A stretch of 64,000 nucleotides of DNA from an uncultured Acidobacteriota bacterium (GCA_964553925.1 CAZKNR010000182.1:18132-82131); one strand, 5' to 3'; counted from the first letter of the stretch, positions 28,927 to 55,629 are shown. Program-made: numbers and translations. The notes: a model not told the origin generated them from the sequence alone.

Positions 28927-30272
28927 TCGCTCTCTGGTTGCTGCTCTCGATCGAAGTTCCCCTGGCCGAGCACGCGGAGCGCCGGGAGCGCCTGATGACC
29001 GACTTTCCCGACGGAATCGTCCTGGTCCACGCTCGATCGAGTCCCTCGTCTCTCGGTGAGCCCTCGTTCAAGCAGGACGCAAACTTTCTCTACTTCACGG
29101 GGCTTCCAAGCCAGCCGGCGGCAATCCTCGCTCTCGATGGCCCTAGAAAAGAGTCGCTCCTTTTCGTCCCTCAGGCGCCGCTCCTGTTCGGGGCCAGGGT
29201 CGAAGATGTAAGCCTCACGCCGGGCGAGGACTCAGCCCGCGCTCACGGCTTCTCCCGGGTCGAGCCCTGGGAGAGCTTCCTACCTTATATAAAGAAGCGG
29301 ATCTCCGAGGGAGTCGGGAAGCTCTATCTGGACGAGGCGAGGAGCGCGGAGTTTCCGGGCAACCCGGAGCCGATGTTGCCGGTCTCGGGCGACAAGCTCC
29401 TCTGGCGCCGGTCGGTGGAAGCGGCGTTTCCCGGGATCGAGATCGCTTCCGCGGAAGGGGAGATCCGGGCGATGCGGTGGGCGAAGTCGAAGGCGGAAGT
29501 GGAAGTTCTTCGGGAGGTGGCGAGAGCGTCGTCGTCGGCGCTCCTCGCGGGACTCCGAGCCGTGAATGTCGGCAAGAGCCAGCGGCACTCGGAGGCCGCG
29601 GTAGTAAGCGCCTGCTTCGAGGCCGGCGCCACAGCACCCTCCTTCTGGCCGTGGACGATGTCGGGCGCGAACGCGCATGCCAGACACCTCGTTCGTTCTT
29701 TCTTCGACTACGAGCATCTCAACCGCGTGATGAAGGACGGGGAGCTGGTTCGGATGGACGTGGGGTGCGCCCTCGGCTATTACGAGGGGGACGTCGGCCG
29801 CACCGTGCCCGTTTCCGGCACGTTCAACGCGGACCAGCGGGAAACGCTGGACCTCCTCGTTCGCGCCTATCGCGCAGGGCTCGGAGCCATGAAGGGGGGA
29901 GTGACGCTCGAGACCGTCATGGCGCGGGCTCGCTCCGAGGTCGAGCGCGCAGAGGGCACGCTCGTGACCGAGTACGCCCGCCGCGCGGCCGCGATCCTGG
30001 TCCGGGCGCCGCTTCGGGAAACGTGGCACATTCACGGCGTCGGGCTCGATGGAGGGGAGACGGGGACCGACACGCTGGAAGTCGGCTCGGTCGTTGCGTT
30101 CGAGCCGATGTTCGCCGTCGACGACGATGCCTACTACATGGAGGATATGATCCTCGTGACCGAGACGGGCCACGAGATCCTGACCGAGGGATTGCCCTAC
30201 AGCGCGGCGGAGATCGAATCGGTGATGAAGGGGTCCCAGCGGGTCAAGAACGGCGAGGCCGATCCAAATTGA
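28923..30272 (+). CDS. M24-family metallopeptidase (Xaa-Pro aminopeptidase-like) with a creatinase-type N-terminal domain.
   Basis: A pita-bread-fold C-terminal domain with metal ligands is present. The start overlaps the upstream stop as ATGA. Confidence 0.8.
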   Translation: MIALWLLLSIEVPLAEHAERRERLMTDFPDGIVLVHARSSPSSLGEPSFKQDANFLYFTGLPSQPAAILALDGPRKESLLFVPQAPLLFGARVEDVSLTPGEDSARAHGFSRVEPWESFLPYIKKRISEGVGKLYLDEARSAEFPGNPEPMLPVSGDKLLWRRSVEAAFPGIEIASAEGEIRAMRWAKSKAEVEVLREVARASSSALLAGLRAVNVGKSQRHSEAAVVSACFEAGATAPSFWPWTMSGANAHARHLVRSFFDYEHLNRVMKDGELVRMDVGCALGYYEGDVGRTVPVSGTFNADQRETLDLLVRAYRAGLGAMKGGVTLETVMARARSEVERAEGTLVTEYARRAAAILVRAPLRETWHIHGVGLDGGETGTDTLEVGSVVAFEPMFAVDDDAYYMEDMILVTETGHEILTEGLPYSAAEIESVMKGSQRVKNGEADPN

Positions 30273-31617
30273 GTCGTTTCAACATCGAGCGTACCGTTCC
30301 TCCCGGGTCTGAAGAACGGCCTCGCCCCACTTCTCCGAGAAGGCGCGCCGCCTTGGTGGGACTTCCTCCGGCACGGGCGAGCGCCTCTTCGAGGGCCACG
30401 CGCTCGACTTCGTCGACGAGCCTTCTCAGGTTCATGGTGCCGGCCTCGATGCGCCGAGCGATGGCGGCGCGATCGACGAGGCCGGGCTCCGCGAGCCCGG
30501 ACGACGGTTGTGACCCGAGGACGCGCTTCGGGAGATCGGAAAGAAGAAGCTCCTCGCCCGAGCGTTTGTAGACCAGAGCTTCGTAGAGAACGTTCCGGAG
30601 CTCGCGCACGTTTCCCGGCCAGGAGTACGAACCGAGCGCCTCGAGAGCGCGAGGGCTCACCCGTTGGACGCGGCCGCGCCGGGCTCCGTCGGGCTCATCG
30701 CGGTAGAACTTCGCGAGAAAGTGGGCGACGAGATCTCCGAGATCCTCGAGCCGGTCGCGCAGTCGAGGGAGCTGGATGGAAACGATGGCGAGCCTCTCGT
30801 AGAGATCGGCTCCGAAGAGGCCCGCCTCGATGAGCCGGGGGAGATCGCGGTTGGTGGCGGCGATGATGCGAAAGTCCACCTCGTGCCACACGTTTTCTCC
30901 GAGCCGGCTCACGACACGATCCTGCACCACCCGCAGGAGCTTGACCTGGAGCGAGAGCGGTGTGTCGTCGATCTCATCGAGGAAGACCGAGCCGCCCTCC
31001 GCCGCCACCAGGAGGCCTTCATAGCGCTGGCTCGCGCCCGAGAAGGCGCCGCGGGCGTATCCGAAGAGCTCTGCCTCCATGAGCTCGTTGGGAATCGCGG
31101 CGCAGTTGATGGGAATGAAGCGGTGGCCTTTGCGGTGGGACCAGTCGTGGATGAGCCGGGCGCAGACTTCTTTTCCCGTTCCCGTCTCCCCGGTCAGGAG
31201 CACCGGCATCGAGGTCTCGGCCGCGCGCGACACCTGGTCCAGGACTCTCTCCGTGGTCTTGCTCTTTCCCACGAAGAGCTCGGTTCGGGCGGGCGGACGG
31301 GGAGTCGAGAGGAGCTCTCTCAGCCGGCGCTCGATCTGGAGGGCGGCGTCTTTCGAGTCGAGGGAGAGGACGTCGTAGGCCCCTTTCTGGACCGCTTCGA
31401 TCGCCTGGTTCTGGGACACGGCTCGTTTCGAGACCCAGAACCAGGGAAGGGCGTCCCCGGGAGGACGAGGGTCGTCGTTCGCCCGCGCGGTATAAAGTAC
31501 CCGCGCCACCGCTTCCGCCTTTCCCGCAGTCAGATCGAAGCCGCGGTCGGCGAGCTTCGATACCAGCTCCGGAGGCGGGGGAGGGCCCGCCCAATCGATC
31601 GCGTAGCGCCGCGCCAT
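30244..31617 (-). CDS. Sigma-54-dependent transcriptional activator (enhancer-binding protein) with a degenerate receiver-like N-terminal domain and a C-terminal HTH.
   Basis: The AAA+ sigma-54 interaction domain carries Walker A (GETGTGKE) and a GAFSGA variant of the GAFTGA loop. A Fis-type HTH lies at the C-terminus. The ATG is at 31617. Confidence 0.85.
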   Translation of the reverse strand: MARRYAIDWAGPPPPPELVSKLADRGFDLTAGKAEAVARVLYTARANDDPRPPGDALPWFWVSKRAVSQNQAIEAVQKGAYDVLSLDSKDAALQIERRLRELLSTPRPPARTELFVGKSKTTERVLDQVSRAAETSMPVLLTGETGTGKEVCARLIHDWSHRKGHRFIPINCAAIPNELMEAELFGYARGAFSGASQRYEGLLVAAEGGSVFLDEIDDTPLSLQVKLLRVVQDRVVSRLGENVWHEVDFRIIAATNRDLPRLIEAGLFGADLYERLAIVSIQLPRLRDRLEDLGDLVAHFLAKFYRDEPDGARRGRVQRVSPRALEALGSYSWPGNVRELRNVLYEALVYKRSGEELLLSDLPKRVLGSQPSSGLAEPGLVDRAAIARRIEAGTMNLRRLVDEVERVALEEALARAGGSPTKAARLLGEVGRGRSSDPGGTVRSMLKRLNLDRPRRS

Positions 31618-31620
31618 GGT

Positions 31621-31660
31621 CGTATTAAAACACGAATTGGAACGTAATAAAATACGTACC
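31621..31660. promoter_or_regulatory. AT-rich inverted-repeat block, a candidate enhancer (UAS) or IHF site.
   Basis: The sequence CGTATT ... AATACG plus a TACGTA palindrome lies in a 42%-GC island inside a 68%-GC genome. It sits between the divergent activator and flotillin genes. Confidence 0.4.
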
Positions 31661-31706
31661 AAAACTCCAGGATGCGAGATCTTCAGGGAAAAGGGCCAAG
31701 TCCTAC

Positions 31707-31722
31707 TGGCACGTGCCGTGCA
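31707..31722 (+). promoter_or_regulatory. Sigma-54 (-24/-12) promoter, TGGCACG-tgcc-GTGCA.
   Basis: The GG-N10-GC spacing is correct. The site lies 31 nt upstream of the AAGGAGG Shine-Dalgarno of the flotillin gene. Confidence 0.55.
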
Positions 31723-31752
31723 TTTCTGGATCGGTGAAACAAGGAGGGTCGC

Positions 31753-33570
31753 ATGTTAGCAATCGGAAGTTGGCCTACCATTTTGATCTATGGCGGGCTC
31801 GCCCTGGTCGTTCTCTCGCTCTTGCTCTGGGTGAGCGCTCGCTTCATCCGCGAGGACGAGTCGGGTCTCGTCATCAAGCGGTTCGGTCCGCTTCTTCCCC
31901 CGGGCCGGATCGTCGCGATGAGCGGTGAGGCGGGCTATCAGGCGAAAATACTGAACCCCGGGATCCACTTCCCGATGTGGCGATGGCGCTACAAGATCGT
32001 GAGAGTTCCGCTGGTGGTCGTGAGTCCCGGGGAGATCGCTCTGGTGGTGGCCGCGGACGGCGCTGCCATTCCTTCGGAACGTGTGTTGGCGAAAGAGGTG
32101 CGATGCGATCAATTCCAGGATGCGGATGCCTTTCTCCGGAACGGAGGAGAGCGGGGACGCCAGCTCGCCTTCGTGACCGCCGGGAGCTACCGGATCAACC
32201 CGGCGCTGTTCGAGGTCGTGATTTCCGAGAGGGCGGGCCAATACGGTCTTTCGCGCGAGTCGCTCGACGTCTACCAGATGCCGCCGGATCGGGTTGGGAT
32301 CGTGACCGTTCTCGACGGTCGTCCCATCGTCTCCGGCGATCTCGCGGGGCCGATCGTTGCCGGACACGACAGCTTTCAACGGGGCCAGGCGTTCATCGAC
32401 TCCGGCGGATGCCGCGGGCTTCAGGAGCAGGTGCTGCTCTCCGGCGCCTGGAACCTGAATCCCTGGTTCGTGAAGGTCGAGCAGATTCCCTTGACCGAGA
32501 TTGGAATCGGCTACGTCGGAGTGGTGGTGAGCTACGTGGGAAAGGAGCACCTCGACGTCTCGGGCGATGCATTCACCCACGGCGATCTGGTCGAGCGGGG
32601 ACGAAAGGGAGTGTGGGTCGAGCCGCTCCTCCCGGGAAAGCACCCGGTCAACACCCGGGTCATGAAAGTCGAGCTGGTGCCCACGACCAACATCGTCCTC
32701 AACTGGGCTTCGCGGACGGAGGCCCATCACTATGACGAGCGACTGTCTTCGATCAACGTCCGCTCGAAGGACGGCTTCTCCTTCAGCCTCGACGTCTCCC
32801 AGATCATCCATATCGGGATGAAAAACGCCCCGAGAGTGATCTCGCGCGTCGGGTCGATGCAGAATCTCGTGGACCACGTGCTCCAGCCGACCGTCGGGAA
32901 CTACTTCCGCAACTCGGCGCAGCAGGTCACGGTCCTGGAGTTCCTGAACGCTCGGAGCGACCGTCAGCGGGAGGCCTTCGAAAGAATCCAGGAGGCGGTT
33001 TTGGCCTACGACGTGGAGTGCATCGACACTCTCATCGGCGACATCGTGCCCCCGCCCGAGCTGATGAAGACCCAGACCGATCGGAAGATCGCCGAGGAGC
33101 TCACCACGACCTACCAGGCGCAGCGCAGCGCCCAGATCGAGCGGCAGACGCTCGAGCGCGAGACCGCCATCGCCAACATGCAAGCAGATGTGGTCCGGAG
33201 CGAACAGATGGTGCAAATCTCCGAGAAGAACGCTCTCGCCCGCGCCGAGGTCGGTAAGGGCGAAGCGGCTTTCGTTCGGGCCCAGGCCGAAGCCGAAGCC
33301 GCGTCGATGCGGATGAAGGGCGAAGCGGAAGCCGTGGCAATACGCGCGACCGGCTCAGCTCAGGCCGAAGCCTATCGGCTTGGACGCGAATCGCTGGGAG
33401 AGGCGGGCTACGTCGCCACCCAGATGGCCTCGATTCTCGGCCAGAACCGGGTCAAGCTCGTGCCCGACATCGCCGTCGGAGGAGACGGCAGCACCCGCCT
33501 TGCGGACGTGCTCATCGGAAAGATGCTCGCGGGGAGTATCCCGGACGCTTCCGCGCCCACCGCGAAGTAA
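31753..33570 (+). CDS. SPFH/band-7 (flotillin-like) membrane protein (605 aa).
   Basis: The product has an N-terminal transmembrane helix, an SPFH domain, and a long C-terminal coiled coil rich in EA repeats. Confidence 0.8.
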   Translation: MLAIGSWPTILIYGGLALVVLSLLLWVSARFIREDESGLVIKRFGPLLPPGRIVAMSGEAGYQAKILNPGIHFPMWRWRYKIVRVPLVVVSPGEIALVVAADGAAIPSERVLAKEVRCDQFQDADAFLRNGGERGRQLAFVTAGSYRINPALFEVVISERAGQYGLSRESLDVYQMPPDRVGIVTVLDGRPIVSGDLAGPIVAGHDSFQRGQAFIDSGGCRGLQEQVLLSGAWNLNPWFVKVEQIPLTEIGIGYVGVVVSYVGKEHLDVSGDAFTHGDLVERGRKGVWVEPLLPGKHPVNTRVMKVELVPTTNIVLNWASRTEAHHYDERLSSINVRSKDGFSFSLDVSQIIHIGMKNAPRVISRVGSMQNLVDHVLQPTVGNYFRNSAQQVTVLEFLNARSDRQREAFERIQEAVLAYDVECIDTLIGDIVPPPELMKTQTDRKIAEELTTTYQAQRSAQIERQTLERETAIANMQADVVRSEQMVQISEKNALARAEVGKGEAAFVRAQAEAEAASMRMKGEAEAVAIRATGSAQAEAYRLGRESLGEAGYVATQMASILGQNRVKLVPDIAVGGDGSTRLADVLIGKMLAGSIPDASAPTAK

Positions 33571-33648: not shown

Positions 33649-34161
33649 GTGACCGTAGTAGAAACGGAAAGATTGACCCTTCGCCGGCTCGAGATCGGCG
33701 ACGCAGAGTTCATTCTCGGTCTCTTGAACGATCCCTCGTTTCTTCGATTCATCGGAGACAAACGGGTCAGGACCCTTGAGGGCGCCCGGGAGTACATCTT
33801 GAACGGGCCGGTCGCAAGCTACGAACGATTCGGATTCGGATTATATTTGACCGAGCGTAAGGACGACGGTGCCCCGATCGGGATCTGCGGTCTCTTGAAA
33901 CGAGAAGCCTTGAAGGACGTCGACCTCGGGTTCGCCTTTCTTCCACGATTCTGGTCGAAGGGCTATGCGTTCGAATCCGCCTCCGCGGTGATGGCCTACG
34001 GAAGAAGCGTCCTCGGGCTCACCCGCATCGTGGCGGTGACGTCGCCCGACAACGAGGCATCGATCCGATTGCTGGAGAAGCTGGGCATGAAGTTCGAATC
34101 CATGGTTCGGCTATCCGAGGATGTCCCCGAGATCCGGTTGTTCGCATCGGACGCGTCATGA
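33649..34161 (+). CDS. GNAT family N-acetyltransferase (RimJ/RimL-like).
   Basis: The GNAT fold is present. The start is GTG. Confidence 0.75.
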   Translation: MTVVETERLTLRRLEIGDAEFILGLLNDPSFLRFIGDKRVRTLEGAREYILNGPVASYERFGFGLYLTERKDDGAPIGICGLLKREALKDVDLGFAFLPRFWSKGYAFESASAVMAYGRSVLGLTRIVAVTSPDNEASIRLLEKLGMKFESMVRLSEDVPEIRLFASDAS

Positions 34162-34607
34162 GAAGAGGCTTCCGCGCCGTCCTCCAAGGCGGGCTCCTCG
34201 CCGGGGTCCTGGACATCGTGGCCGCGTTCGTCGTCTACGGTTTTCGCGGCGCGACCCCCATCCGGATACTCCAGTCCATCGCGAGCGGACTACTCGGGGC
34301 GGAGGCTTTCGAGGGCGGCCTCGCGACCGCGGCCTTCGGCGGGCTGCTGCACTTCGTCATCGCCTGCGGCTGGGCCGTCGTCTACTACGGGGCGAGTCGG
34401 CGGCTTCGGGTCCTCTCGAGTCGACCCGTCCTCTCGGGAATGGCGTACGGAGCGGCGGTGTACCTCATGATGAATCTCGTGGTCCTGCCCCTCTCCGCCT
34501 TTCCGAAACGCCCGTTCGCCTTCGACGTCGTCATCCTGATCGTCCACATGTTCTGTGTCGGGCTTCCCATCGCGCTTTCGGTGAGCCGCTCGGTGCCGAA
34601 GGTCTAG
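34158..34607 (+). CDS. Hypothetical membrane protein with four transmembrane helices.
   Basis: The start overlaps the upstream stop as ATGA. The composition is hydrophobic. Confidence 0.5.
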   Translation: MRRGFRAVLQGGLLAGVLDIVAAFVVYGFRGATPIRILQSIASGLLGAEAFEGGLATAAFGGLLHFVIACGWAVVYYGASRRLRVLSSRPVLSGMAYGAAVYLMMNLVVLPLSAFPKRPFAFDVVILIVHMFCVGLPIALSVSRSVPKV

Positions 34608-34617
34608 CCGAAATTCC

Positions 34618-35877
34618 GTGCGCCGCCTCGCGCCCGTTCTAAGGCCACGCTCCGGGAGAAAGCTTCCGCCGGATTTGCGGGCCAGGAACGTCGGGCGCCT
34701 GGCGGGGAGCTTGCCGCAGGGCGTCCGGGACCCGGCGTTCGAGCCGCTTCTCCGGCGGATCGAACAGGGGCCGGTTCACGGCGGCAACCGCGTCACCGTC
34801 GTCCACCGCGGTCAAGAGGCCTTTCAGCTCATGCGGCGCGCGATCGAGGGCGCGGTAGAAGAAATTCTCCTCGAGTCCTACATATTCAAGGACGACAAAA
34901 CCGGCTGGGAGATGCTGGAGCTCCTTGGCCACGCCTCTTCGCGCGGTGTTGCGGTTCGGGTCCTGGCGGATGCTTTCGGGTCCCTCTGGACCCGGTCAGG
35001 CTTCTGGCGGGAGATGCGCAAGCGCGGTTGCGAGGTGCGGCTGTTTCATCCCGTCTTCCCGTATTTTTGGCACCAGTTCTTTCGGGACCACAGGAAGATC
35101 CTGGTCGTCGATCGAAGCGTCGGGTTTACCGGAGGAATGAACATCGCCGAGGAGTACGGCTCGCCGCGAGCGCGCGGGCACGTCCGCGCGTGGAGGGACA
35201 CTCACGCGCAGGTCGAGGGGCCGGCGGCGTGGGAGCTCGCCCTGGTATTCTCGGAAGCCTGGCATAGGGCGGGGGGAACGCCGCTCGCGATCCCGTCTCT
35301 CGTCGTGGACGACGCCAAACCGCCTGCGGGAGCGCGCGTCCTGGTCCTGGACTCGCGGCCGCTCCGCGGGCATCAAGAGTCAGCCGCCGTGCTTTCAGCG
35401 ATCGTCGGCGCCGCGCGCCGGTCGGTTTTCATCACCAACGCCTACTTCGCGCCGAGCTCGGTGGCGATCGAGATTCTCGACGCTGCCGCCCGCCGCGGAG
35501 TCGACGTCCGCCTGCTTCTTCCCGGCGCGAGCGACGTGCCACTCATCCGCCACGCGGGGCATGGCTACTTCGACGTCTTGCTGGAGAGCGGGGTGCGGAT
35601 CTTCGAGTACGGCGCCGCCGTGCTTCACGGGAAGACCATGGTCGCGGACGGATTCGTCAGCGTCGTGGGCTCGACCAATCTAGACTTTCGCTCTTTCCGA
35701 TTCAACGCCGAGTGCAATCTCGTCGTCCTCGACGAAGAAACCGGCGCGGGCATGGTGGTGGCGTTCGAGGAGGACCTGACCCTTTCGGAGGAAATTCGGC
35801 CCGAGCCCTGGCGCCGGCGCGGACTCGGGCATCGATGGGGCGACGCCCTCGCACGGCGCCTGAGCCCACTCCTGTGA
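34618..35877 (+). CDS. cls: Phospholipase D family protein, a ClsB-type cardiolipin synthase.
   Basis: Two HKD motifs (HRKILVVD and HGKTMVADG) are present. There is no N-terminal transmembrane helix. Confidence 0.8.
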   Translation: MRRLAPVLRPRSGRKLPPDLRARNVGRLAGSLPQGVRDPAFEPLLRRIEQGPVHGGNRVTVVHRGQEAFQLMRRAIEGAVEEILLESYIFKDDKTGWEMLELLGHASSRGVAVRVLADAFGSLWTRSGFWREMRKRGCEVRLFHPVFPYFWHQFFRDHRKILVVDRSVGFTGGMNIAEEYGSPRARGHVRAWRDTHAQVEGPAAWELALVFSEAWHRAGGTPLAIPSLVVDDAKPPAGARVLVLDSRPLRGHQESAAVLSAIVGAARRSVFITNAYFAPSSVAIEILDAAARRGVDVRLLLPGASDVPLIRHAGHGYFDVLLESGVRIFEYGAAVLHGKTMVADGFVSVVGSTNLDFRSFRFNAECNLVVLDEETGAGMVVAFEEDLTLSEEIRPEPWRRRGLGHRWGDALARRLSPLL

Positions 35878-35994
35878 GCGGCCATCAGGGGATCATGACC
35901 TCTCGGCATAGTGTTGCGCCGATGAAGACCATCTTCTCGGAGAGGTCCGCATCGATCGTGTCGACGAGGTGACGGCCCGAGATCCGGGACAGGT

Positions 35995-36026
35995 GTAAAG
36001 TTCATGATATTGCACTTTACTCATGA
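35995..36026. promoter_or_regulatory. AT-rich inverted/direct repeat upstream of phoD.
   Basis: The sequence is GTAAAGT-TCATGA-tattgc-ACTTTAC-TCATGA, within a low-GC island. Confidence 0.35.
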
Positions 36027-36102
36027 GTGAAGTTGGATTCGTAGGGCGGAAACGACGTGGTACCGCCTTGACAAGCCTTTGGAAATTGATTCGGATACGC
36101 CT

Positions 36103-37973: not shown

Positions 37974-37980
37974 TACTACC

Positions 37981-46662: not shown

Positions 46663-46678
46663 TGCAACCTCCGTACCA
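46663..46678 (-). promoter_or_regulatory. Sigma-54 promoter, TGGTACG-gagg-TTGCA.
   Basis: There is one mismatch to TGGCACG-N4-TTGCA. The predicted transcription start falls immediately upstream of the AGGAGG of the zinc-ribbon gene. Confidence 0.5.
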
Positions 46679-46770
46679 GACCGTGAGCGCTGGCTCTGAT
46701 TCGGAATATTCCTTGCATAGGCATCGCCGAGGAAGAACGGACGCGACAGAAATTCGAGCTCTTCGGTGCG

Positions 46771-47007: not shown

Positions 47008-47115
47008 CGCGAGTGGTTGCGCCTTTTCCCGCAGGGGTCTAGACTCCGCTGCGGCTCCTTTGGCCACTGCTCTTCATTTCGTTGAGGATGCGCGCAACGG
47101 AGAATCCGCGAAAAC

Positions 47116-47131
47116 TGGCAGCATTCGTGCT
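47116..47131 (+). promoter_or_regulatory. Weak sigma-54-like motif, TGGCAGC-attc-GTGCT.
   Basis: The GG-N10-GC spacing is correct. The site lies about 100 nt upstream of the NtrC-like gene. Confidence 0.3.
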
Positions 47132-48614: not shown

Positions 48615-48622
48615 CTCCCTCC

Positions 48623-49633
48623 GTGCCTCGCCATTGGCCACGCGGTCTCATCGTCGGGATCTCGATGCTCGTCGGATGGACTCTCGTCGGTACCGCCGGC
48701 TTCACGACCATCGAAGGTTGGCCGGCGCTCGACTCTCTTTACATGACCATCACCACGCTCTCGACGGTCGGCTACGGGGAGATCCATCCGCTCTCGGGCG
48801 CGGGGCGGCTCTTCGCGAGCTTTCTCATCGTTGGAGGGCTTGGGACCGCGCTCTATACGCTTACCCGGCTCGGGCAAGTGGTTCTGGAGAGCGAGCTCCT
48901 GGGCGGAATCGGAAGGAGGCGGATGCGCAGTCAATTGAGGACTCTAGAGAGTCATTTCATCGTGTGCGGGTTCGGCCGGTTCGCCAAGCCGGTGACCGAA
49001 GAGCTCGCGCACAAAAATCTTCCTTTCTGCGTGATCGAGAGGAACCCGGGCGCCGAGCCTCACCTCGCCGATCTCGGGTACCTGTTTCTCATCGACGATG
49101 CCACCACCGACGAAGCGCTCCAGGCAGCGGGCATCGAGGGCGCCCAGTGCGTGCTGGCGCTGCTTCCTTCCGACGCCGATAACCTGTACGTCACCGTCGC
49201 TGCCAAAGCGCTGAACCCTCGGCTCCGGGTCATCGCGCGCGCTACCGACGAGGGCGGAGAGCGAAAGCTCCTGCGCGGGGGCGCGACCGTCGTGGTGACG
49301 CCCTACCGCCTCACCGGGCAGAGGATCCTGCAGGCGGCGACCAGTGCCACGGTGCTGGAGTTCATGGACTACGTGGCGGACCGCCACTACCTCGAAATGA
49401 ACCTGGGCGAGGCAATGGTCTCCGCCCGTTCCCCGGTGGTGGCTACCACGATTGCCGGGGCGCGGCTGCATTCCGAACACGGAGTCATCGTCGTCGCGGT
49501 GAAGCGGCAGGGGACGATGCTGTTCAACCCGCTGCCGGAGGAGGAGCTTCGAGCGGGGGATATCCTGGTGATCATGGGTCACGCGGACCAGCTGCGAAAG
49601 ACGACGCGCCTCCTTGAAGCTCAGTCCGCATGA
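48623..49633 (+). CDS. Two-transmembrane K+ channel with RCK (TrkA-N/TrkA-C) domains.
   Basis: The TVGYGE selectivity filter is present. The start is a GTG at 48623, 9 nt after the ntrC-like stop; an alternative ATG lies at 48665. Confidence 0.75.
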   Translation: MPRHWPRGLIVGISMLVGWTLVGTAGFTTIEGWPALDSLYMTITTLSTVGYGEIHPLSGAGRLFASFLIVGGLGTALYTLTRLGQVVLESELLGGIGRRRMRSQLRTLESHFIVCGFGRFAKPVTEELAHKNLPFCVIERNPGAEPHLADLGYLFLIDDATTDEALQAAGIEGAQCVLALLPSDADNLYVTVAAKALNPRLRVIARATDEGGERKLLRGGATVVVTPYRLTGQRILQAATSATVLEFMDYVADRHYLEMNLGEAMVSARSPVVATTIAGARLHSEHGVIVVAVKRQGTMLFNPLPEEELRAGDILVIMGHADQLRKTTRLLEAQSA

Positions 49634-49639
49634 GCCGGC

Positions 49640-51232
49640 TCAACGGGTGAGGCCGAGTGCGACGGGGAGCGTCTTCGCCAGGATCTCGAGATTCGCTGCG
49701 ACGGATTCACTCGTGTCGAGGACGGCGTGCTCTGACGGATCCAGCTCGTCTACGGGCTCCCAGCTCCGCAGGAAATCATCGAGGACGTTGACACGGCCGT
49801 CGCTGACCGATTTCTCTTTCTCCCGTTCGCGGAGCCTCTCCCGACAGAGCTCACCTCCCGCGCGGCATTCGACGAAGACGAACGGGATACCGTTCGCCTG
49901 CGCGAGGCGCTTCGCCTCGGCGCGGTGCGCTCGGGCTCGAAACGATGCGTCGAGGATGACGGGCCTTCCCGACGCAAGCACCGCCGACGCGCGCCGGCAG
50001 AGCTCCGAGTACACCTTTCGAGTGAACTCTGCGGAATAGAAACCCGTCCACGAGCTCTCGGGCAGCGGATCTTCGGGCGCGACACCGGCGAGCTGCTTGC
50101 GGGTCCGGTCGGCATCCACCACCGGGGCCGGCATCTCTCTTCCGAGGGCATTGGCGAGGGTGCTTTTTCCCGAGCCAATCACTCCGCCGACGGCGATGAC
50201 CCTGGCGGGCACGAGCGATTGTCGCTCGGAAGCGAGCGCCAGGAGAAAGTAGCGCCGCGCCTCGGCGGCCGCCCGCTCTCGAACCCTGAGGCTCGCGGCC
50301 ACGTCGTGGGCGGTCATCGAAGCGATCTTTCCGCGAACGAAAGCGCGGTAGCTCTGATAGAAGTCCACGAGCGGGTAGAGGTCGTAGTCGCCCGCCTCGC
50401 GCGCGTAGCGGGCAATGAAGCGCTCCGCGAGGTCGACGCGCCCGTGCCAGGCGAGATCCATCGCGAGAAAGACCACATCGGCGCATACGTCCGCGAATCG
50501 AAACCGGTCGTTGAACTCGATGCAGTCGAGAATCGTCACCTCACCAGGCTCGCCGAGGTAGACGTGCTCGAGCCGCAAGTCGCCGTGACCGTCGCGGATC
50601 CGGCCGCTCCGAAGCCGCTCTTCGAAGAGCGACCGTCGTTCCTCCAGGAAGCGCAGCTGCCAGGCCTCGAGCTCCTTCACCCGGTCCGCGCCGAGGTATT
50701 GCCCGATCGTGGACCTCGTCTGCTCGAAGTTCTCGAGAACGTTGAATCGAATCGCCTCGACCGTCCCGAACGACTCGGCGGCCGCGCTCGGACCGCATTC
50801 GTGGTGGAATCTCGCCACGCGCCCGGCGACGAGCTCAATGTCCTCGCCCGTGAGATCTCCTCGTTCGAGCCGCACGTCCGCCCGATGCGAGTCCGGAAGT
50901 CGTTTCATGTGCACCGCCCAGTCGACCGGGTTGCCGTGCGGTCCGAAGCGGTGTCGGCCGGAGGCGTCGCGGATCACCGGGACGACGCCTCGATACACAT
51001 CCGGCGCCAGGCGCCGGTTCAGCCGGACTTCCGCCTCACAGGCTTCAAGGCGCTTCTCGATCGTGCTGAAGTCGAGAAAACCGAGCGATACCGGCTTCTT
51101 TACCTTGAACGCGTCATCGCCGCCGAGAAAAACCCACGAGATGTGAGTTTCCCGGAGCTCCATGCCGGGGGGAAAAAGGTCGACCGCCTTCGTTCCCATT
51201 ACGGTGACCTCAGCATGCAAATCCGATTCCAC
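49640..51232 (-). CDS. Bifunctional aminoglycoside-phosphotransferase-like kinase with a C-terminal P-loop (AAA/zeta-toxin-like) ATPase domain.
   Basis: The N-terminal part has an APH/protein-kinase-like fold. The C-terminal part carries a GVIGSGKSTLA P-loop. The start is GTG at 51232 or ATG at 51199. Confidence 0.7.
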   Translation of the reverse strand: MESDLHAEVTVMGTKAVDLFPPGMELRETHISWVFLGGDDAFKVKKPVSLGFLDFSTIEKRLEACEAEVRLNRRLAPDVYRGVVPVIRDASGRHRFGPHGNPVDWAVHMKRLPDSHRADVRLERGDLTGEDIELVAGRVARFHHECGPSAAAESFGTVEAIRFNVLENFEQTRSTIGQYLGADRVKELEAWQLRFLEERRSLFEERLRSGRIRDGHGDLRLEHVYLGEPGEVTILDCIEFNDRFRFADVCADVVFLAMDLAWHGRVDLAERFIARYAREAGDYDLYPLVDFYQSYRAFVRGKIASMTAHDVAASLRVRERAAAEARRYFLLALASERQSLVPARVIAVGGVIGSGKSTLANALGREMPAPVVDADRTRKQLAGVAPEDPLPESSWTGFYSAEFTRKVYSELCRRASAVLASGRPVILDASFRARAHRAEAKRLAQANGIPFVFVECRAGGELCRERLREREKEKSVSDGRVNVLDDFLRSWEPVDELDPSEHAVLDTSESVAANLEILAKTLPVALGLTR

Positions 51233-51260
51233 GCGCTTCGATGTCCCCCGGCAGTATGCG

Positions 51261-51277
51261 GAATTCTGCTAGAATTC
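51261..51277. promoter_or_regulatory. GAATTC-N5-GAATTC box overlapping a TAGAAT -10-like hexamer.
   Basis: Two AT-rich palindromic hexamers lie 11 bp centre-to-centre, 23 nt upstream of the first USP gene. Confidence 0.4.
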
Positions 51278-51299
51278 GGCCCACAAAGCGGGACTGCGA

Positions 51300-52169
51300 A
51301 TGAAAATCCGGCGAATCCTGATACCTACAGACCTGTCGGAGGCGGCCGATCGCGCGCTGAAGCAGGCGGTTGCGCTCGCGATCCAGCATCGAGCCAAGAT
51401 CGACATCCTCCACGTTGTCACGCTTCAGAACCTGGATCCGACGAACGTCCAGCAGGCCCTGGACGCCTATATGAAGAAAGTCGAGGACGAAGTCTTCGGC
51501 GATCTCGCGACCCGGAGCGACGCAATCAAGACCCGCGGGCTTGCCGTAGAGACCGTGGTCGTGCGACGCCCGTATCCGGTGGACGCGATTCTGGAACGGA
51601 TAAGGGAGACGGAGCCCGACGTGGTCGTCATGGGGACCCACGGTCGGTCCGGGCTCCGGAAGCTTCTGCTGGGAAGTGTCGCCGCGCGCATCGTCCTCGA
51701 GGCACGCTGTCCGGTGATGACCGTCGCGATGGACGCCGAAGTCGCCGAGGGTGAAAAAGGTTTCGATCCGATCCTCGTGCCCGTCGACTTCAGCGAATAC
51801 TCGGAGAGGGCAGTCGAAACGGCGCGGGCGCTCCGGGCGCCTTCGGGTCGGTTGATTCTGGAGCACGTGGTATCGAGCCCAGTGCACCCTTCGCTCTACG
51901 CCGGCGGGGTCGCGAAACTGTTCCAGCTCCATCCGGAGCTTCCTGGCCTCATCGGGAAGAAGCTCTCCGAGCTCGATCGAGGTCCGGGTGAGAGCGTCGT
52001 GACCGAAGGAAGCATCGTCGAAGAAATTCTCGAGACCGCGAGGTGCGTGAAGGCCCAGCTGATCGTAATGGGGACGCGGGGCCTGAGTCGGCCGGACTAT
52101 CTTCTTCTCGGGAGCGTCACCGAGAGAGTGATCGGACGCGCGAAGGTCCCGGTGTTCGCGATCAAGTAG
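51300..52169 (+). CDS. Universal stress protein, tandem UspA domains.
   Basis: Two Usp domains are present, each ending in a G..G....G..S ATP-binding motif. Confidence 0.85.
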   Translation: MKIRRILIPTDLSEAADRALKQAVALAIQHRAKIDILHVVTLQNLDPTNVQQALDAYMKKVEDEVFGDLATRSDAIKTRGLAVETVVVRRPYPVDAILERIRETEPDVVVMGTHGRSGLRKLLLGSVAARIVLEARCPVMTVAMDAEVAEGEKGFDPILVPVDFSEYSERAVETARALRAPSGRLILEHVVSSPVHPSLYAGGVAKLFQLHPELPGLIGKKLSELDRGPGESVVTEGSIVEEILETARCVKAQLIVMGTRGLSRPDYLLLGSVTERVIGRAKVPVFAIK

Positions 52170-52210
52170 TCGGCGGGGAGATGCCCGGGGTTCTCACGCG
52201 TCGAGTTTTG

Positions 52211-52226
52211 CGGCACGCCCCTTGCA
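52211..52226 (+). promoter_or_regulatory. Sigma-54 promoter, CGGCACG-cccc-TTGCA.
   Basis: The site matches TGGCACG-N4-TTGCA with one mismatch. It lies about 110 nt upstream of the second USP gene. Confidence 0.5.
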
Positions 52227-52336
52227 GGTATTGTGTGCTCGGGGCTGGGTACCCACAATCCGGGGCTCTCTCGCGACGATGGATGTCGGAGACAGGGGAG
52301 CCCGGAGCGGGTATGACATAGCCAAGTGAGGTCTCT

Positions 52337-53242
52337 ATGATCCGATTGGAACGCATCCTTTGTCCGACGGATTTCTCGAAGTTCGCGTTCCGCGCCGCGG
52401 ATTACGCCGTTGCCCTTGGCCGGCGTTACGACGCCGAGGTCCATTTCCTTCACGTCATCCCTTCGGCCCTGATTCATCCGGAGCAGTATCCCTATGTCGC
52501 GGAGGCGGTCCCGCTCGCGCCCGAGTTCCGAAAGCGCGCTCTCGAGCGCCTCGATGCCTTCGTCGCTCTTTCCAAGGCCGAGGGCGTGCGCACCCGGTTC
52601 AGCGTCGCCGAGGGCGCTCCGGTCAACGCGATCCTGGAGGCCGCTGAGGCCGATGAGGCGAGTCTTCTTTGTCTCGGGACTCACGGCCGGGAAGGTGTGG
52701 AACGGCTCGTTCTGGGCTCCGTCGCGGAGAAGGTTCTCCGCAAGGCCCGGTGCCCGGTGCTGACGGTCTCGGAGGCGGGGGACGAGCGCGCGCCGAAGGA
52801 GGCCGTCTTCAAGAACATCCTCTGCGCGGTCGATTTCGCTACGCTTTCTCTCAAAGCTGTTGAGTACTGCCTTTCCCTCGCCCAGGAGTCGGGCGGGCGG
52901 TTGACGCTCCTAAACACGGTGGAGTGGTTCCCCGACGAGCCGACCTGGATTGGAAGTCCGAACGTTTCCGACTACAAGTCGCAGATGGAAGAGCAGGTGA
53001 GAACCCGCCTCGAGGAGATCGTGCCCGAAGAGGCCGGGGAGTGGTGCGACGTCGAGGTCGTGGTCCGTTCGGGGAAGGCTTATCGGGAGATTCTCACCGT
53101 GGCCCGCGAACGGAGAGTCGACCTCATCGCTCTGGGCGTGCGCGGGCGAAATCCGCTGGACATCATGCTGTTCGGCTCGACGACCCAGCACGTCGTGCGC
53201 CATGCGGAATGCCCGGTGCTCACGATTTCGGAAGGAAACTAA
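52337..53242 (+). CDS. Universal stress protein, tandem UspA domains.
   Basis: Two Usp domains are present. Confidence 0.85.
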   Translation: MIRLERILCPTDFSKFAFRAADYAVALGRRYDAEVHFLHVIPSALIHPEQYPYVAEAVPLAPEFRKRALERLDAFVALSKAEGVRTRFSVAEGAPVNAILEAAEADEASLLCLGTHGREGVERLVLGSVAEKVLRKARCPVLTVSEAGDERAPKEAVFKNILCAVDFATLSLKAVEYCLSLAQESGGRLTLLNTVEWFPDEPTWIGSPNVSDYKSQMEEQVRTRLEEIVPEEAGEWCDVEVVVRSGKAYREILTVARERRVDLIALGVRGRNPLDIMLFGSTTQHVVRHAECPVLTISEGN

Positions 53243-54157
53243 GTGTTCAAAAAGATCCTTTGCCCCGTCGATTTCTCCGAGAGCTCGGATCGGGCTCTCG
53301 ACTACGCTCTCGCCATGGCAAAACGCCACGGAGGCCAGGTCACGGTGATGCACGTGCTTCCGACGGTCCTCGGCGATCCTGAGCTTTATCCGTACCTGAC
53401 CGAGCCGGTCCTGGCGAGCGGTGAAGCGCGGGATCGGGCTCATCGTCAGCTCGGAGATTTCGTGCATCGCGCGCTCGCGGACGGCATCGGCGCCGAGGTG
53501 ATCCTCGAGGACGGTGACGTGGTCGAGGAGGTGTTGAAGAAAGCGAAGACGCTCGAGGCGGATCTCGTCGTCATGGGAACCCACGGCCGCCGCGGTTTTC
53601 GGCGCCTTCTTCTCGGCTCCGTAACCGAGCGGGTCCTCAGGCAGTCGGAAGCACCGGTGCTCTCGATCTCGCCCTCGGCGCCGAAGATCGGAACGGACCG
53701 GGGTCCGTTCCAGAAGATCCTCTGTGCGGTGGACTTCTCTCCTGCCTCGCTCGCCGGGCTTTCAGTCGGCCTGGACCTCCGCGAGGGGAACGCGGAGCTC
53801 CTCGTTGTCCATGTCGTGGAGTTCTACCTCCCTCCCGCTCTCGGCGAAGCGGTCGCCTTCAATGTCACCGAGCTTCGAGGGCGCCACCGGTTGGAGGGAC
53901 AGGCGAAGCTGGAAAAGCTGGTGCCCGAGGACGCTCGAGCGCGCATCCGGCTCGAGACCGTGGTGCTGGAATCGGGGTCTCCCTACCAGGAGATTCTGAA
54001 GACGGCGGAGCGAGAAGAGTGCGAACTCATCGTGATGGGCGTCGCCGGCCGGAGTTCGGCGGATTTGGTGTTTTTCGGCTCGACTGCCAACCACGTGGTC
54101 CGCTCCGCCGCCTGTCCGGTTCTGACGGTTCGTTCTCCGGGCTCGAACCGAGGGTGA
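53243..54157 (+). CDS. Universal stress protein, tandem UspA domains.
   Basis: The GTG start lies immediately after the upstream TAA. Two Usp domains are present. Confidence 0.85.
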   Translation: MFKKILCPVDFSESSDRALDYALAMAKRHGGQVTVMHVLPTVLGDPELYPYLTEPVLASGEARDRAHRQLGDFVHRALADGIGAEVILEDGDVVEEVLKKAKTLEADLVVMGTHGRRGFRRLLLGSVTERVLRQSEAPVLSISPSAPKIGTDRGPFQKILCAVDFSPASLAGLSVGLDLREGNAELLVVHVVEFYLPPALGEAVAFNVTELRGRHRLEGQAKLEKLVPEDARARIRLETVVLESGSPYQEILKTAEREECELIVMGVAGRSSADLVFFGSTANHVVRSAACPVLTVRSPGSNRG

Positions 54158-54161: not shown

Positions 54162-54581
54162 GTGTTTCGAACCATCGTAGTTCCCGTGGACCTGACGGAT
54201 CGAAACCAGCCCGCGGTCGAGATGGCGGCAAAGCTTTCGACCCAATCCCAGGGGACGATTCATCTCCTCCACGTCATCGAGACGATTTCCGGTTTCTCGG
54301 TAGAGGAGGAGCCGGAATTCTACGGACGGCTGGAGAAGCGAGCGGCAAAGCACCTGGAAGCGCTTTCGGCGCCATTACGCGAGAGCGGAATCCGGGTCGA
54401 GTCCGAGGTGATTTACGGGCGGCGCGCGAAGACCATACTCGAGGAGGCGGGGAAGATTGGCGCGGACCTTCTCGTGATCCAATCTCATCGCATCGATGGG
54501 GAGCGGCGGGGGGAGGGGCTCGCGACCTTGAGTCATCAGGTTGGACTCTTTGCGCTTTGCCCGGTGCTCCTCGTCAGATAG
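54162..54581 (+). CDS. Universal stress protein, single domain.
   Basis: The GTG start lies 4 nt after the upstream stop. One Usp domain is present. Confidence 0.8.
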   Translation: MFRTIVVPVDLTDRNQPAVEMAAKLSTQSQGTIHLLHVIETISGFSVEEEPEFYGRLEKRAAKHLEALSAPLRESGIRVESEVIYGRRAKTILEEAGKIGADLLVIQSHRIDGERRGEGLATLSHQVGLFALCPVLLVR

Positions 54582-54719: not shown

Positions 54720-54734
54720 CTCGGAGGAATTTGA

Positions 54735-55054
54735 GTGCGCTTTTGCCTTTGGCTTCTACTTGTGGCTTACGCTGTCGCTCGGCCAGGCTGGGCTCAGGAG
54801 AACCGCTGCGCCGACTGCCACATCGCCAACCCGCAAGCCGACCCCGTCCCGGGGCACACGTAGGACTGGGAAACGTCGGCTCATGGGCGCAACGTCGTCG
54901 GATGCGAGAATTGCCACGACATGAGCAGGCCCAGATCCCGCTCCGCGAAGCCGTCCACTCCGCCCACGCGTTCGTGTTCGACCAGATGAGGGAGCGTTTG
55001 AAGGCGGCGAAGGAGAGAAGTGAGGCGCTTCTCACCGAGCTCGCGAACCCGTAG
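54735..55054 (+). pseudogene. Disrupted dihaem cytochrome c gene.
   Basis: A signal peptide (VRFCLWLLLVAYAVARPGWAQ) is followed by CADCH. An in-frame TAG lies at 54861. A second motif, W..SAH....CENCH, follows in the same frame. A frameshift near 54920 leads into a protein-like C-terminus (HEQAQIPLREAVHSAHAFVFDQMRERLKAAKERSEALLTELANP). Confidence 0.4.
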
Positions 55055-55150
55055 CCGCAGGCGGTATGCCGACCGGGTGCTATGGCGCGCGGTCTCGTGA
55101 AATGCCCCACTGGAGTATGGGTAAGCGCGGTTCGACCCATCAGTGGGTCA

Positions 55151-55166
55151 TGGCACCCACCGTGCA
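55151..55166 (+). promoter_or_regulatory. Sigma-54 promoter, TGGCACC-cacc-GTGCA.
   Basis: The -24/-12 arrangement is almost identical to the flotillin promoter. It lies just upstream of the AAGGAGG and ATG of the CBS gene. Confidence 0.45.
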
Positions 55167-55185
55167 CGAGAGCAAGGAGGCAGCG

Positions 55186-55629
55186 ATGGGACTCAAAGGA
55201 CTGATGAAGACTCAGCCTGCGACGCTCTCGCCCGGCGCGAGCGTACTCGAAGCCTGCCGGATCATGAGCGAGCGGAAGCTCAGCGCCGTTGCGGTGGTGG
55301 AGGAGGGGAAGCTGCGGGGCATCCTGACACAGGGCGACGTCCTCGCGCGGGTGGTGCTTTCCAAGCGGGACCCGGAGAAGGTCATGATCTCCGAGGTGAT
55401 GACCCAAGACGTCGTCACCATCACCGCGGAGCGTTCCTGCGGGGATGCGCTGCGTTTGATGGTGGAGCGCGGGCACAACGTTCTCCCGGTGATCGAGAAG
55501 GGTGGAGAAGAGGAGCTCGCGGGAATAATCACCCTCCCCGAGCTGCTGAAGAACGAGATCGATCACTTGGCGAACGAGCTCGACGCGGTGACGAGCTACT
55601 TCACCTCCGATGGCGCCGGCGGCGACTGA
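55186..55629 (+). CDS. CBS-domain pair protein (147 aa).
   Basis: The start is the ATG at 55186, after AAGGAGG. Tandem CBS domains are present. The upstream extension in the track is rejected. Confidence 0.8.
   Translation: MGLKGLMKTQPATLSPGASVLEACRIMSERKLSAVAVVEEGKLRGILTQGDVLARVVLSKRDPEKVMISEVMTQDVVTITAERSCGDALRLMVERGHNVLPVIEKGGEEELAGIITLPELLKNEIDHLANELDAVTSYFTSDGAGGD

Follow-up and report, generated by a model that had tools for sequence, protein, structure and literature searches.

The DNA considered here is a stretch of 64,000 nt from an uncultured Acidobacteriota bacterium (GCA_964553925.1, CAZKNR010000182.1:18132-82131), called the window in what follows. It encodes two sigma-54 activators, the enhancer-binding proteins EBP1 and EBP2, together with genes for flotillin, a terminal oxidase, CBS proteins, universal stress proteins (USPs) and a K+ channel, several of which are preceded by sequences resembling -24/-12 (sigma-54) promoters. 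A sequence-only reading of the window had proposed six such promoters between 30244 and 55629 and had placed them, with both activators, in a single stress/respiration regulon.

Genes of the locus and their relatives

Genes were called by third-position G+C bias and then checked with Pfam; the G+C content of the window is 62-68%. EBP1 (30244-31617, minus strand, ATG at 31617) matches Sigma54_activat (2.4e-61) and HTH_8, and is divergent from a gene for a flotillin/SPFH protein of 605 aa (31753-33570, plus strand; Band_7, 1.6e-23). Genes for a GNAT protein, a membrane protein, a PLD-type enzyme and PhoD follow (33649-37422). On the minus strand lie ctaCDEF (37674-41198; COX2, COX1, COX3 and COX4_pro), a cytochrome c'-like gene with a C-terminal CVRCH haem motif (41345-41758) and a CBS gene (41767-42165; CBS, 4.4e-33). 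Plus-strand genes for a 242-aa protein and a hydrolase (42203-43665) precede that of a hybrid histidine kinase (43704-45662, plus strand), whose domains are PAS, haem-type PAS (see below), HisKA, HATPase and REC. An operon on the minus strand encodes a Zn-ribbon protein of the BCAM0308 family (46134-46637; NCBIfam NF040826, 165.7 bits against a cutoff of 100) and a CBS protein (45676-46137), and divergent from it is the gene of a small Zn-ribbon protein of 78 aa (46771-47007, plus strand), which is 68% identical to its copy in relative L003 and is found in L002 too. EBP2 (47229-48614, plus strand) consists of REC, AAA+ and HTH_8 domains (Sigma54_activat, 1.7e-69; Response_reg, 7.8e-29). The start codon of the K+ channel gene (48623-49633, plus strand; Ion_trans_2, TrkA_N and TrkA_C in Pfam) comes 9 nt past the EBP2 stop, and the two genes are probably co-transcribed; in L005 they are separated by a USP gene that has a sigma-54 box itself. 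Further on are an AAA_33 kinase-like gene (49640-51199, minus strand, ATG at 51199), four USP genes (51300-52169, 52337-53242, 53243-54157 and 54162-54581, plus strand; Usp, 1e-21 to 1e-65) and another CBS gene (55186-55629, plus strand).

The closest homologues of EBP2 are labelled Acidobacteriota or Vicinamibacteria, with identities that grade from 95% to about 56%. The DNA around EBP2 was compared with that around its orthologues in L001 to L004 (80-83% EBP2 identity), L005 and L006 (92%) and L119 (77%). L005 and L006 are about 85% identical to the window in nucleotide sequence and syntenic with its 37.5-51.2 kb region. The orthologue group appears to end at about 75% identity, since L120 (72%) and L121 (57%) have neither the promoter box found before EBP2 (site D, below) nor the gene cluster. 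Within the group, EBP2 is consistently found amid genes for USPs (up to ten in a row), CBS proteins, multihaem cytochromes, oxidases, Hsp20 and hemerythrin. As a control, 495 kb of related acidobacterial metagenomic DNA was used.

Both activators named by the sequence-only reading are real, each having an intact sigma-54 AAA+ domain with a GAFTGA-type loop and a C-terminal helix-turn-helix (HTH). The receiver of EBP2 is canonical (VVDDED, LLDVHLPD, IIMTAY and FVSKP, giving DD, D54 and SKP). Its L1 loop is GAFTDA, invariant in 120 of 120 homologues, and the loop of EBP1 is GAFSGA. Both GAFTDA and GAFSGA are among the variants that keep activity in Desulfovibrio activators (PMC4641369).

Sigma-54 boxes of the window

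Boxes were defined by TGGCAC-N5-TTGCW, with GG and GC exactly 10 nt apart. The window has ten (GG-N10-GC, one to three mismatches), all oriented to a gene start at a distance of 13-120 nt. The six sites proposed earlier, here A to F, are present where they had been placed, each with GG-N10-GC, and all six face the downstream gene, 13-110 nt before its start codon. The unusual -12 variant that several of them were said to share is present, as GTGCA or GTGCT, in three of the six. Four boxes, X, C', G and H, had been missed.

The excess of boxes is entirely non-coding. In the whole window there are 13 matches with at most two mismatches against 6.15 expected, and coding DNA shows no excess. Fewer than one chance site had been predicted for roughly 3 kb of intergenic DNA; the 5,669 nt of intergenic DNA contain eight boxes with at most two mismatches against 0.75 expected, a number reached in none of 2,000 first-order Markov simulations (Poisson p about 1e-6). 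Boxes with at most one mismatch occur at 0.014 per kb in the control and at 0.14 per kb around EBP2 orthologues; six of them lie in the 24-55.3 kb region of the window. Conservation at orthologous loci also bears out the earlier proposal for five of its sites (flotillin, ctaC, Zn-ribbon/CBS, the ntrC-like gene EBP2, and CBS), which are kept in non-coding DNA of Vicinamibacteria relatives. Overall, boxes A, B, C, C', D, F and G are conserved while spacers and flanks drift, and they keep a fixed orientation and distance relative to the start codon. These properties support the view that the boxes behave as promoters, with sigma-54 as the presumed factor. The intact sigma-54 interaction domains of the two activators speak indirectly for an rpoN gene in this genome, as does an earlier survey in which three of three Acidobacteria genomes had RpoN (PMC3372290). 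Scans of the window with Rfam and for tRNA genes returned nothing.

The EBP1-flotillin pair

Site A (TGGCACGTGCCGTGCA, 31707-31722, plus strand) lies 30 nt before the flotillin ATG, which has an AAGGAGG Shine-Dalgarno sequence. An AT-rich inverted repeat, GTATTAAAACACG-N8-CGTAATAAAATAC (31622-31655), 52-85 nt upstream of the -24 element, is the candidate enhancer (upstream activating sequence) for EBP1. A metagenome scan with EBP1 gave 80 loci, two at 92-96% identity and the others at 53-66%. In every locus with enough upstream DNA, a flotillin gene is divergent from EBP1; flotillin is 64-96% identical (mostly 71-81%), and 71-80% identical where EBP1 is just 54-62%. A YGGC-N7-[AGC]TGCAC box is found at the equivalent position in 61 of 61 EBP1-flotillin intergenic regions (56 of them unique). 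The AT-rich inverted repeat recurs at the equivalent place upstream of the box in the metagenomic orthologous loci, and its position is at least 50% A+T in 53 of the 56 unique contexts, in a genome of 62-64% G+C. The flotillin boxes have C at +3 in 42 of 53 sequences and A and C after the GC in 47 of 53. The first base of the -12 TTGCA is T in none of the 53, which generalises the GTGCA variant. Since the genes 3' of flotillin are not conserved across loci, the module seems to consist of EBP1 and flotillin only. We propose that EBP1 binds the AT-rich inverted repeat and activates the flotillin promoter only, so that the pair would be an envelope or membrane module laid out like pspF-pspA.

Ahead of the AAA+ domain and its Fis-type HTH, EBP1 has an N-terminal domain of about 115 aa (residues 1-115) that is conserved in more than 50 orthologues (W9, G11, W59, W61 and G79-A80-Y81). 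It has no Pfam match, and no PDB relative was found with the single sequence or with a 21-sequence profile. NCBIfam models of receiver-containing activators align to EBP1 only from residue 68 or so. The domain may be a degenerate receiver without the acidic pocket.

Two further features of the flotillin intergenic regions were seen. Orthologous loci have a conserved gaaaaCAGGCCtgaat box between the enhancer and the -24 element. Many flotillin leaders in L041 to L118 (e.g., L048, L056 and L066) have a hairpin, GGCGGAC-gcaagcgt-GTCCGCC, just before the Shine-Dalgarno sequence; it is missing from the window and its two closest relatives, L039 and L040.

Boxes of the oxidase, CBS, Zn-ribbon, EBP2 and USP genes

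Site B (TGGCATCGGGTTTGCG, 41212-41227, minus strand) lies 13 nt before the ctaC ATG (41198) and would drive ctaCDEF. Its 16-mer is unchanged in L005 and L006 despite diverged flanks, and in L002 a B-type box (CGGCATCGCATTTGCC) lies 13 nt ahead of the COX2 GTG. Site X (CGGCATAGGCTTTGCA, 42193-42208, minus strand), with a 16-mer identical in L005 and L006, lies ahead of the CBS and cytochrome c'-like genes that precede ctaC.

As a separate observation, the -24 half of site B can pair with the ctaC start codon (CATCGGG...CCCGATG, 41198-41227) in the window, L005 and L006. The L002 counterpart (about 7080-7110) reads CATCGC...GCGGTG, with one compensatory change. Judging from the sequence, such a hairpin could hide the start codon on transcripts reading through from the upstream CBS and cytochrome c' genes.

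Site C (TGGTACGGAGGTTGCA, 46663-46678, minus strand), 25 nt before a GTG with an AGGAGG Shine-Dalgarno sequence, belongs to the Zn-ribbon/CBS operon; its counterpart in L005 and L006 is TGGTATGGACGTTGCA. Back-to-back with it is site C' (CGGAATATTCCTTGCA, 46702-46717, plus strand), which faces the small Zn-ribbon gene. Boxes of the form GGAAC..TCCTTGCA are likewise paired with a minus-strand box in L001, L003, L004, L005 and L006, with gaps of 37-76 nt. Because the gap varies, C and C' are two elements and not one. In L002 only the plus-strand C'-type box was found, without the paired minus-strand box. Site D (TGGCAGCATTCGTGCT, 47116-47131, plus strand), which would serve EBP2 and the K+ channel, is present before EBP2 in L001, L003, L004, L005, L006 and L119 as TGGCA[GA]C[AG][TA]TC[CG]TGCT; in L003 it lies 14 nt ahead of the EBP2 ATG.

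Site G (TGGAATCGGATTTGCA, 51216-51231, minus strand) is 16 nt before the ATG of the AAA_33 gene. Its homologue in L005 (CGGCATCGGGTTTGCA, 16917, minus strand) precedes a gene for a 599-aa protein, which in turn is followed by the AAA_33 gene. Site F (TGGCACCCACCGTGCA, 55151-55166, plus strand) lies 19 nt before the ATG of the last CBS gene, which has an AAGGAGG Shine-Dalgarno sequence. F-type boxes, TGGCAC-N5-GTGCA, occur in non-coding DNA before a CBS or USP gene in L001 to L004, L006 and L119, and L005 has ATGCA; their spacers differ (CCACC, GCTCC, GGGCC, GGGGC, GAGGC, GGAGC and CGGCG). Site H (CGGCACAGGCCTTGCA, 24012-24027, plus strand; one mismatch) is outside the range considered by the sequence-only reading. 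It lies 21 nt before the ATG (24049) of a gene for a secreted DUF5122 beta-propeller protein of 1,078 aa, and neither of the two enhancer types is present upstream. Homologues of the cytochrome c'-like gene (secreted, 40-79% identity) and of the small Zn-ribbon gene carry boxes in differing contexts. The boxes thus follow gene families from one context to another, as expected of a conserved regulon.

Site E (CGGCACGCCCCTTGCA, 52211-52226, plus strand), proposed earlier as the promoter of a USP operon, has another origin. It is inside a USP relic (52190-52321, plus strand), an in-frame remnant made of the last 44 or so codons of a deleted USP gene (VLTRRVLRHAPCRYCVLG...GMT and stop). The 16-mer CGGCACGCTCCTTGCA occurs within USP genes of 307-315 aa in L001, L003 and L004, where it encodes the C-terminal motif ..VLRHAPC.. 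(CTG CGG CAC GCT CCT TGC). The conservation of site E is therefore that of a protein-coding sequence, the USP motif RHAPC, and is not independent evidence for a promoter; no enhancer motif is present upstream. The relic box may still fire. USP genes of the relatives do bear a box with an enhancer, for example in L119 (box at 17676, minus strand; motif at 17743, minus strand, 22.5 bits).

A 16-bp enhancer motif associated with EBP2

A palindrome-constrained Gibbs sampler, run on 23 promoters of six genomes (positions -30 to -190), returned a 16-bp motif, TGCGYG-WTTT-SMCSCA, with 10.5 bits against 6.2-7.2 bits in shuffled sets. A position weight matrix (PWM) was made from 13 instances and both strands were scanned. 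In the 495-kb control no match reached 16 bits and three reached at least 14 bits. In the window three matches reached at least 16 bits: one is 99 nt upstream of box B, one 134 nt upstream of C and one 98 nt upstream of D.

The enhancer motif upstream of ctaC is a pair (41311-41326, plus strand, 16.2 bits; 41331-41346, minus strand, 12.3 bits) offset by 20 nt. It was outside the training set of the PWM, is kept in L005, L006 and L002, and scores 16.3 bits with a PWM from EBP2-promoter sites alone. The enhancer motif of site C (TGCGTCTTTTTGCCCA, 46797-46812, minus strand, 18.0 bits) is inside the 5' end of the small Zn-ribbon reading frame and scores 16.2 bits with a PWM from D sites only. The enhancer motif of site D (TGCGCCTTTTCCCGCA, 47018-47033, plus strand, 19.6 bits) is a candidate autoregulatory site of EBP2. 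D-type motifs are found upstream of each EBP2 orthologue down to 77% identity (L001, L003, L004, L005, L006 and L119), with a second copy 20 nt off in L003 and L004. Upstream of F there is a weak match (TGGGGCATTTCACGAG, 55094-55109, minus strand, 12.2 bits) at 57 nt, a score reached by 0.2% of control windows. The copies at orthologous F-type promoters are stronger: 19.9 bits in L001, 16.7 in L003, 17.9 in L005 and 18.5 in L119. When the PWM is made solely from the EBP2 autoregulatory sites (seven genomes), B and C of the window are recovered, as are F-type, USP and COX2 promoters elsewhere, with four control matches of at least 14 bits. Upstream of A the best score is 8.3 bits, which 6% of control windows reach, and the motif is thus absent there. 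The copies are often paired at an offset of 20-21 nt, which would put them on one face of the DNA helix.

The motif is assigned to EBP2 because it is present at EBP2's own promoter in every genome, and we infer from these sequences that EBP2 is its binder. Phosphorylated EBP2 would bind the 16-bp imperfect palindrome, often in two copies, 57-160 nt upstream of the -24 boxes. Its targets would be its own gene with that of the K+ channel, ctaCDEF, the BCAM0308-family Zn-ribbon/CBS operon and a CBS gene. The divergent small Zn-ribbon gene is a probable target, and in the relatives many USP and cytochrome c' genes would be added.

Other candidates for the enhancer were tried and rejected. Upstream regions share no exact palindromic k-mer dyads. 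A hand-built TTTSMCSC-N4-8-GSGKSAAA was not enriched (45 matches against 39 in shuffled sequence). CACGC-N5-7-GCGTG was not general and is in fact two adjacent copies of the 16-bp motif. The consensus of NmpR, a Myxococcus activator discussed below (GCGCA-N5-TGCGC, at most two mismatches), is scattered in coding DNA and unlinked to the boxes. A sigma-70 promoter, TTGCGC-N17/18-TAGACT, was also considered upstream of D. The consensus scan gave no promoter-like sites, and the same 16-mer recurs upstream of boxes without a -10-like element, which again speaks against a sigma-70 promoter as the main reading.

Two side observations concern the reach of the set. In L003 (13093-15824), L004 (18802-21386) and L119 (18649-21377), a histidine kinase and a second sigma-54 activator of receiver type lie beside the USP clusters; the window has no counterpart. 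Just beyond the last CBS gene of the window (55681-55804), a pair of enhancer motifs (55681, plus strand, 12.0 bits; 55701, minus strand, 14.1 bits; 20-nt offset) is followed by TGGCATAGTCCGTGAA, a sigma-54-like sequence in which GA replaces the GC of the -12 element, 14 nt before the ATG (55819) of a LolA-like/FtsX ABC operon. This element might belong to the EBP2 set, in a degenerate or atypical form.

The kinase and the signal

Residues 127-276 of the hybrid kinase match the haem-PAS of FixL or DosP (EcDOS) in 14 of 15 PDB matches (E = 2.5e-18 to 1.5e-14). The proximal His is aligned (LMPEKLAETH versus LMPEPDRSRH), as is ARRKDG with GKRRDG. Against the NCBIfam FixL model the kinase scores 179 bits (1e-52); since this is far under the equivalog cutoff of 850 bits, the kinase is to be called FixL-like and not FixL. 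It adjoins EBP2 orthologues in L002, L005, L006 and two JGI contigs. The kinase is accordingly a candidate O2 sensor feeding EBP2, which it would phosphorylate directly or via a relay. BCAM0308, the namesake of the Zn-ribbon family, is a gene of the low-oxygen-activated lxa locus of Burkholderia cenocepacia, which is rich in USPs and has an Anr/FNR-type motif (PMC3721108). The kinase PAS and the BCAM0308-family protein add to the likeness to hypoxia or energy-stress modules that the sequence-only reading had noticed. Oxygen or respiratory status is the most likely signal, in view of the haem-PAS matches, the BCAM0308/lxa family member and the gene surroundings.

Leaders of the predicted sigma-54 transcripts

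Transcription from sigma-54 promoters begins about 11 nt (11-13 nt) past the GC of the box. At ctaC of the window, L005, L006 and L002, the box ends 13-14 nt before the start codon and there is no Shine-Dalgarno sequence. The same holds for genes of secreted cytochromes c' (L001, L003 and L004) and for EBP2 of L003. For the AAA_33 gene, and for CBS genes in L005 and L006, the distance is 16 nt. Other box-bearing genes have leaders of 19-35 nt with AGGAGG. With a start about 11 nt past the box, the 5' untranslated region at the short distances would be 0-5 nt. Several of the promoters might thus give leaderless or nearly leaderless mRNAs, possibly a separate translational regime for respiratory genes under stress, an idea that we regard as tentative and somewhat doubtful. 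No paper on sigma-54 promoters and leaderless mRNAs was found in the literature searched.

Changes at the window locus

Two genes of L005, the closest relative, are missing from the window locus. One is the USP gene that in L005 stands between EBP2 and the K+ channel gene and has a sigma-54 box itself (at 48612-48623; L005 counterpart, 11385-12418), and the other is the gene for the 599-aa protein ahead of the AAA_33 gene (at 51199-51300; L005 counterpart, 15122-16921). Between the USP genes and site F, a decayed multihaem cytochrome c gene spans just 318 nt (54736-55053). It starts with a signal peptide and CADCH, continues past an in-frame TAG to CENCH, and then shifts frame into a conserved C-terminus (..AHAFVFDQMRERL..LANP and stop); the intact orthologues (L001, L003, L004 and L119) have about 250 aa. 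The two missing genes, the USP relic and the cytochrome c pseudogene suggest that the locus is undergoing erosion or reshuffling. In L001, the CBS gene after the F-type box (13821-14040) looks frameshifted (ATG GAG TCA AAG GAC TGA), which is either a pseudogene or an assembly error. Elsewhere in the window, about 1 kb (8350-9384) has no reading frame that passes the codon-bias filter. The AAA_33 gene (with a weak APH match) and the divergent tandem-domain USP gene (49640-52169) recall Rv2004c-Rv2005c of the Mycobacterium tuberculosis DosR regulon, a pair of apparently similar make-up.

One regulon or two

The best explanation of the sequence data is that the 24-55 kb region of this Vicinamibacteria genome holds about nine genuine sigma-54 promoters. 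Chance, base composition or coding sequence is scarcely credible as the source of the matches. Of the six sites proposed earlier, one (52211) does stem from a USP coding motif, and the whole-window count is just about twofold over shuffled sequence; against this, the intergenic excess is about tenfold and was never reached in simulation, and boxes are kept at orthologous non-coding positions despite diverged flanks. It is also very improbable that the boxes are sites of a dimeric transcription factor, or RNA or translation elements. Such a role would fit the GCAC/GTGC symmetry of TGGCAC-N5-GTGCA (GCAC-N7-GTGC being partly palindromic), the ctaC start-codon hairpin with its one compensatory change between the window and L002, and the conservation of site D spacer included. 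It does not fit the asymmetric parts that are kept (the 5' TGG, and A or T after the GC), the direction of each box toward a gene, or the invariant positions, which are exactly GG and GC, 10 nt apart. The non-palindromic boxes C and B follow the same pattern, and the region has two sigma-54 activators as well as enhancer motifs that lie upstream and apart from the boxes.

Given sigma-54 promoters, the analysis makes it probable that they serve two separate activator circuits, EBP1 with flotillin, and the haem kinase with EBP2 and its set, the latter responding to an oxygen-type signal. This division follows from the independence of the EBP1-flotillin pair, which has its own enhancer, and from the restriction of the 16-bp motif to EBP2-associated promoters. 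A single stress/respiration regulon of all promoters and both activators, as first proposed, is unlikely. All elements are within 31 kb, and SPFH genes adjoin the EBP2 orthologue in L119, as such a regulon would have it. The proposal is opposed by the EBP1-flotillin pair being self-contained in 61 of 61 loci, without USP, CBS or cta genes, and by the flotillin enhancer being an AT-rich inverted repeat in place of the 16-bp motif. Less easily set aside, yet still doubtful, is a sigma-54 regulon with a signal other than oxygen: energy or nutrient starvation, NO or redox, or K+ or osmotic stress. USP and CBS proteins are generic nucleotide-binding stress proteins, the channel is probably co-transcribed with EBP2, the oxidase is A-type and not high-affinity, and a FixL-like PAS may bind NO or CO or be free of haem. 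Yet haem O2 sensors make up all of the best structural relatives of the PAS domain, whose proximal His aligns with theirs, the targets include a BCAM0308/lxa-family member, and the same gene classes are hypoxia-responsive in Myxococcus, Burkholderia and Mycobacterium.

Several observations weigh against the arrangement in two circuits, or parts of it. The open reading frames of the 64-kb window include no rpoN. By PWM scan, the 16-bp motif is absent upstream of X, C', G, H and E, and the copy at F of the window is weak. The motif could be that of the second activator of the relatives, or of some other factor. A receiver domain is part of the kinase itself, which is a hybrid, and no protein of Hpt type was seen, which bears on the route to EBP2. 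An A-type oxidase is usually a high-oxygen enzyme, and ctaCDEF is of this type (COX1 with COX3 and COX4), which bears on the direction of the oxygen response. Site B can form the hairpin with the ctaC start codon, and the conservation of site X is partly confounded by the ATG (42203) of the divergent 242-aa gene, which the site overlaps.

Comparison to known systems

The sequence-only reading had taken sigma-54 control of such genes to be a distinct regulatory solution. This cannot be upheld, since NmpR of Myxococcus xanthus already does so (PMC11841059). NmpRSTU comprises an NtrC-like activator and a haem-dependent kinase relay that includes a hybrid kinase, with paired dyads and an autoregulated operon; under hypoxia NmpR switches on, from sigma-54 promoters, a CBS gene that is part of the NmpR operon, a USP gene, a cbb3 oxidase and hemN-hemerythrin (PMC11841059). 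The EBP2 circuit would share with it an NtrC-type activator, autoregulation, a haem-type kinase, CBS, USP and oxidase targets and paired upstream dyads, and in L001 hemerythrin adjoins the EBP2 orthologue, as among NmpR targets. The two differ in the kinase (FixL-type haem-PAS here, the protoglobin kinase NmpU in Myxococcus), the enhancer (TGCGYG-WTTT-SMCSCA here, GCGCA-N5-TGCGC there), the oxidase (A-type ctaCDEF here, cbb3 there), the far larger number of USP genes here, and the phylum. In NCBIfam, EBP2 has only generic NtrC/AtoC-type matches, below cutoffs.

The other systems resemble the locus in part. With FixL-FixJ it shares a kinase whose haem-PAS is closest to FixL structures, with the proximal His and the GKRRDG-type Arg in alignment, and oxidase genes among the presumed outputs. 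FixJ is a LuxR/NarL-type regulator acting with sigma-70, unlike the NtrC-type sigma-54 activator here, and the kinase here is a hybrid with a C-terminal receiver. With DosR and lxa loci it shares clustered USPs, CBS proteins and a BCAM0308-family protein, as well as Hsp20 in L004 and L119. Sigma-54 is used here, whereas those loci depend on the NarL-type DosR or an Anr/FNR-type TGA-N6-TCA motif (lxa, PMC3721108); a NarL/LuxR-type DosR regulator is absent among the reading frames of the window. EBP1 is like PspF in being divergent from a single sigma-54 promoter with a membrane scaffold target and an enhancer in a short intergenic region. It is unlike PspF in its target, SPFH/flotillin instead of PspA, and in the N-terminal domain, which PspF lacks; no psp genes are present in the window. 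EBP2 is like NtrC at glnAp2 in its REC-AAA+-Fis-type HTH architecture, in dyads about 100 nt upstream of GG-N10-GC, and in its presumed autoregulation. The half-sites are TGCGTG-N4-CACGCA here as against TGCACC-N5-GGTGCA for NtrC, the targets here are not nitrogen-assimilation genes, and several promoters here are 13-16 nt from the start codon. The picture from these comparisons is that the EBP2 circuit is a variant of the known sigma-54/NtrC-type design and not a new kind. The literature searched contained no paper on Acidobacteria, sigma-54 and USPs together, and none on a bacterial flotillin and sigma-54.

Significance for the Vicinamibacteria

Acidobacteria, the Vicinamibacteria included, rank with the most abundant bacteria of soil, yet very little appears to be known of their gene regulation. 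For them the locus offers a concrete regulatory model: a FixL-like haem kinase would act through an NtrC-type activator and a 16-bp enhancer on about eight sigma-54 promoters, which would control an oxidase, a K+ channel, cytochrome c' and proteins of the CBS and USP families. The EBP1-flotillin pair would be a widespread and so far undescribed sigma-54 membrane module. The box and enhancer PWMs can be used for regulon mapping in any Vicinamibacteria genome, and the 13-nt spacing raises the question of leaderless mRNAs driven by sigma-54. The dormancy/low-oxygen gene set is controlled by DosR in Actinobacteria and by FNR/Anr in Proteobacteria. Here control would lie with sigma-54 and an enhancer-binding protein, a third kind of regulator for this set, which would now be seen in a second phylum besides Myxococcota.

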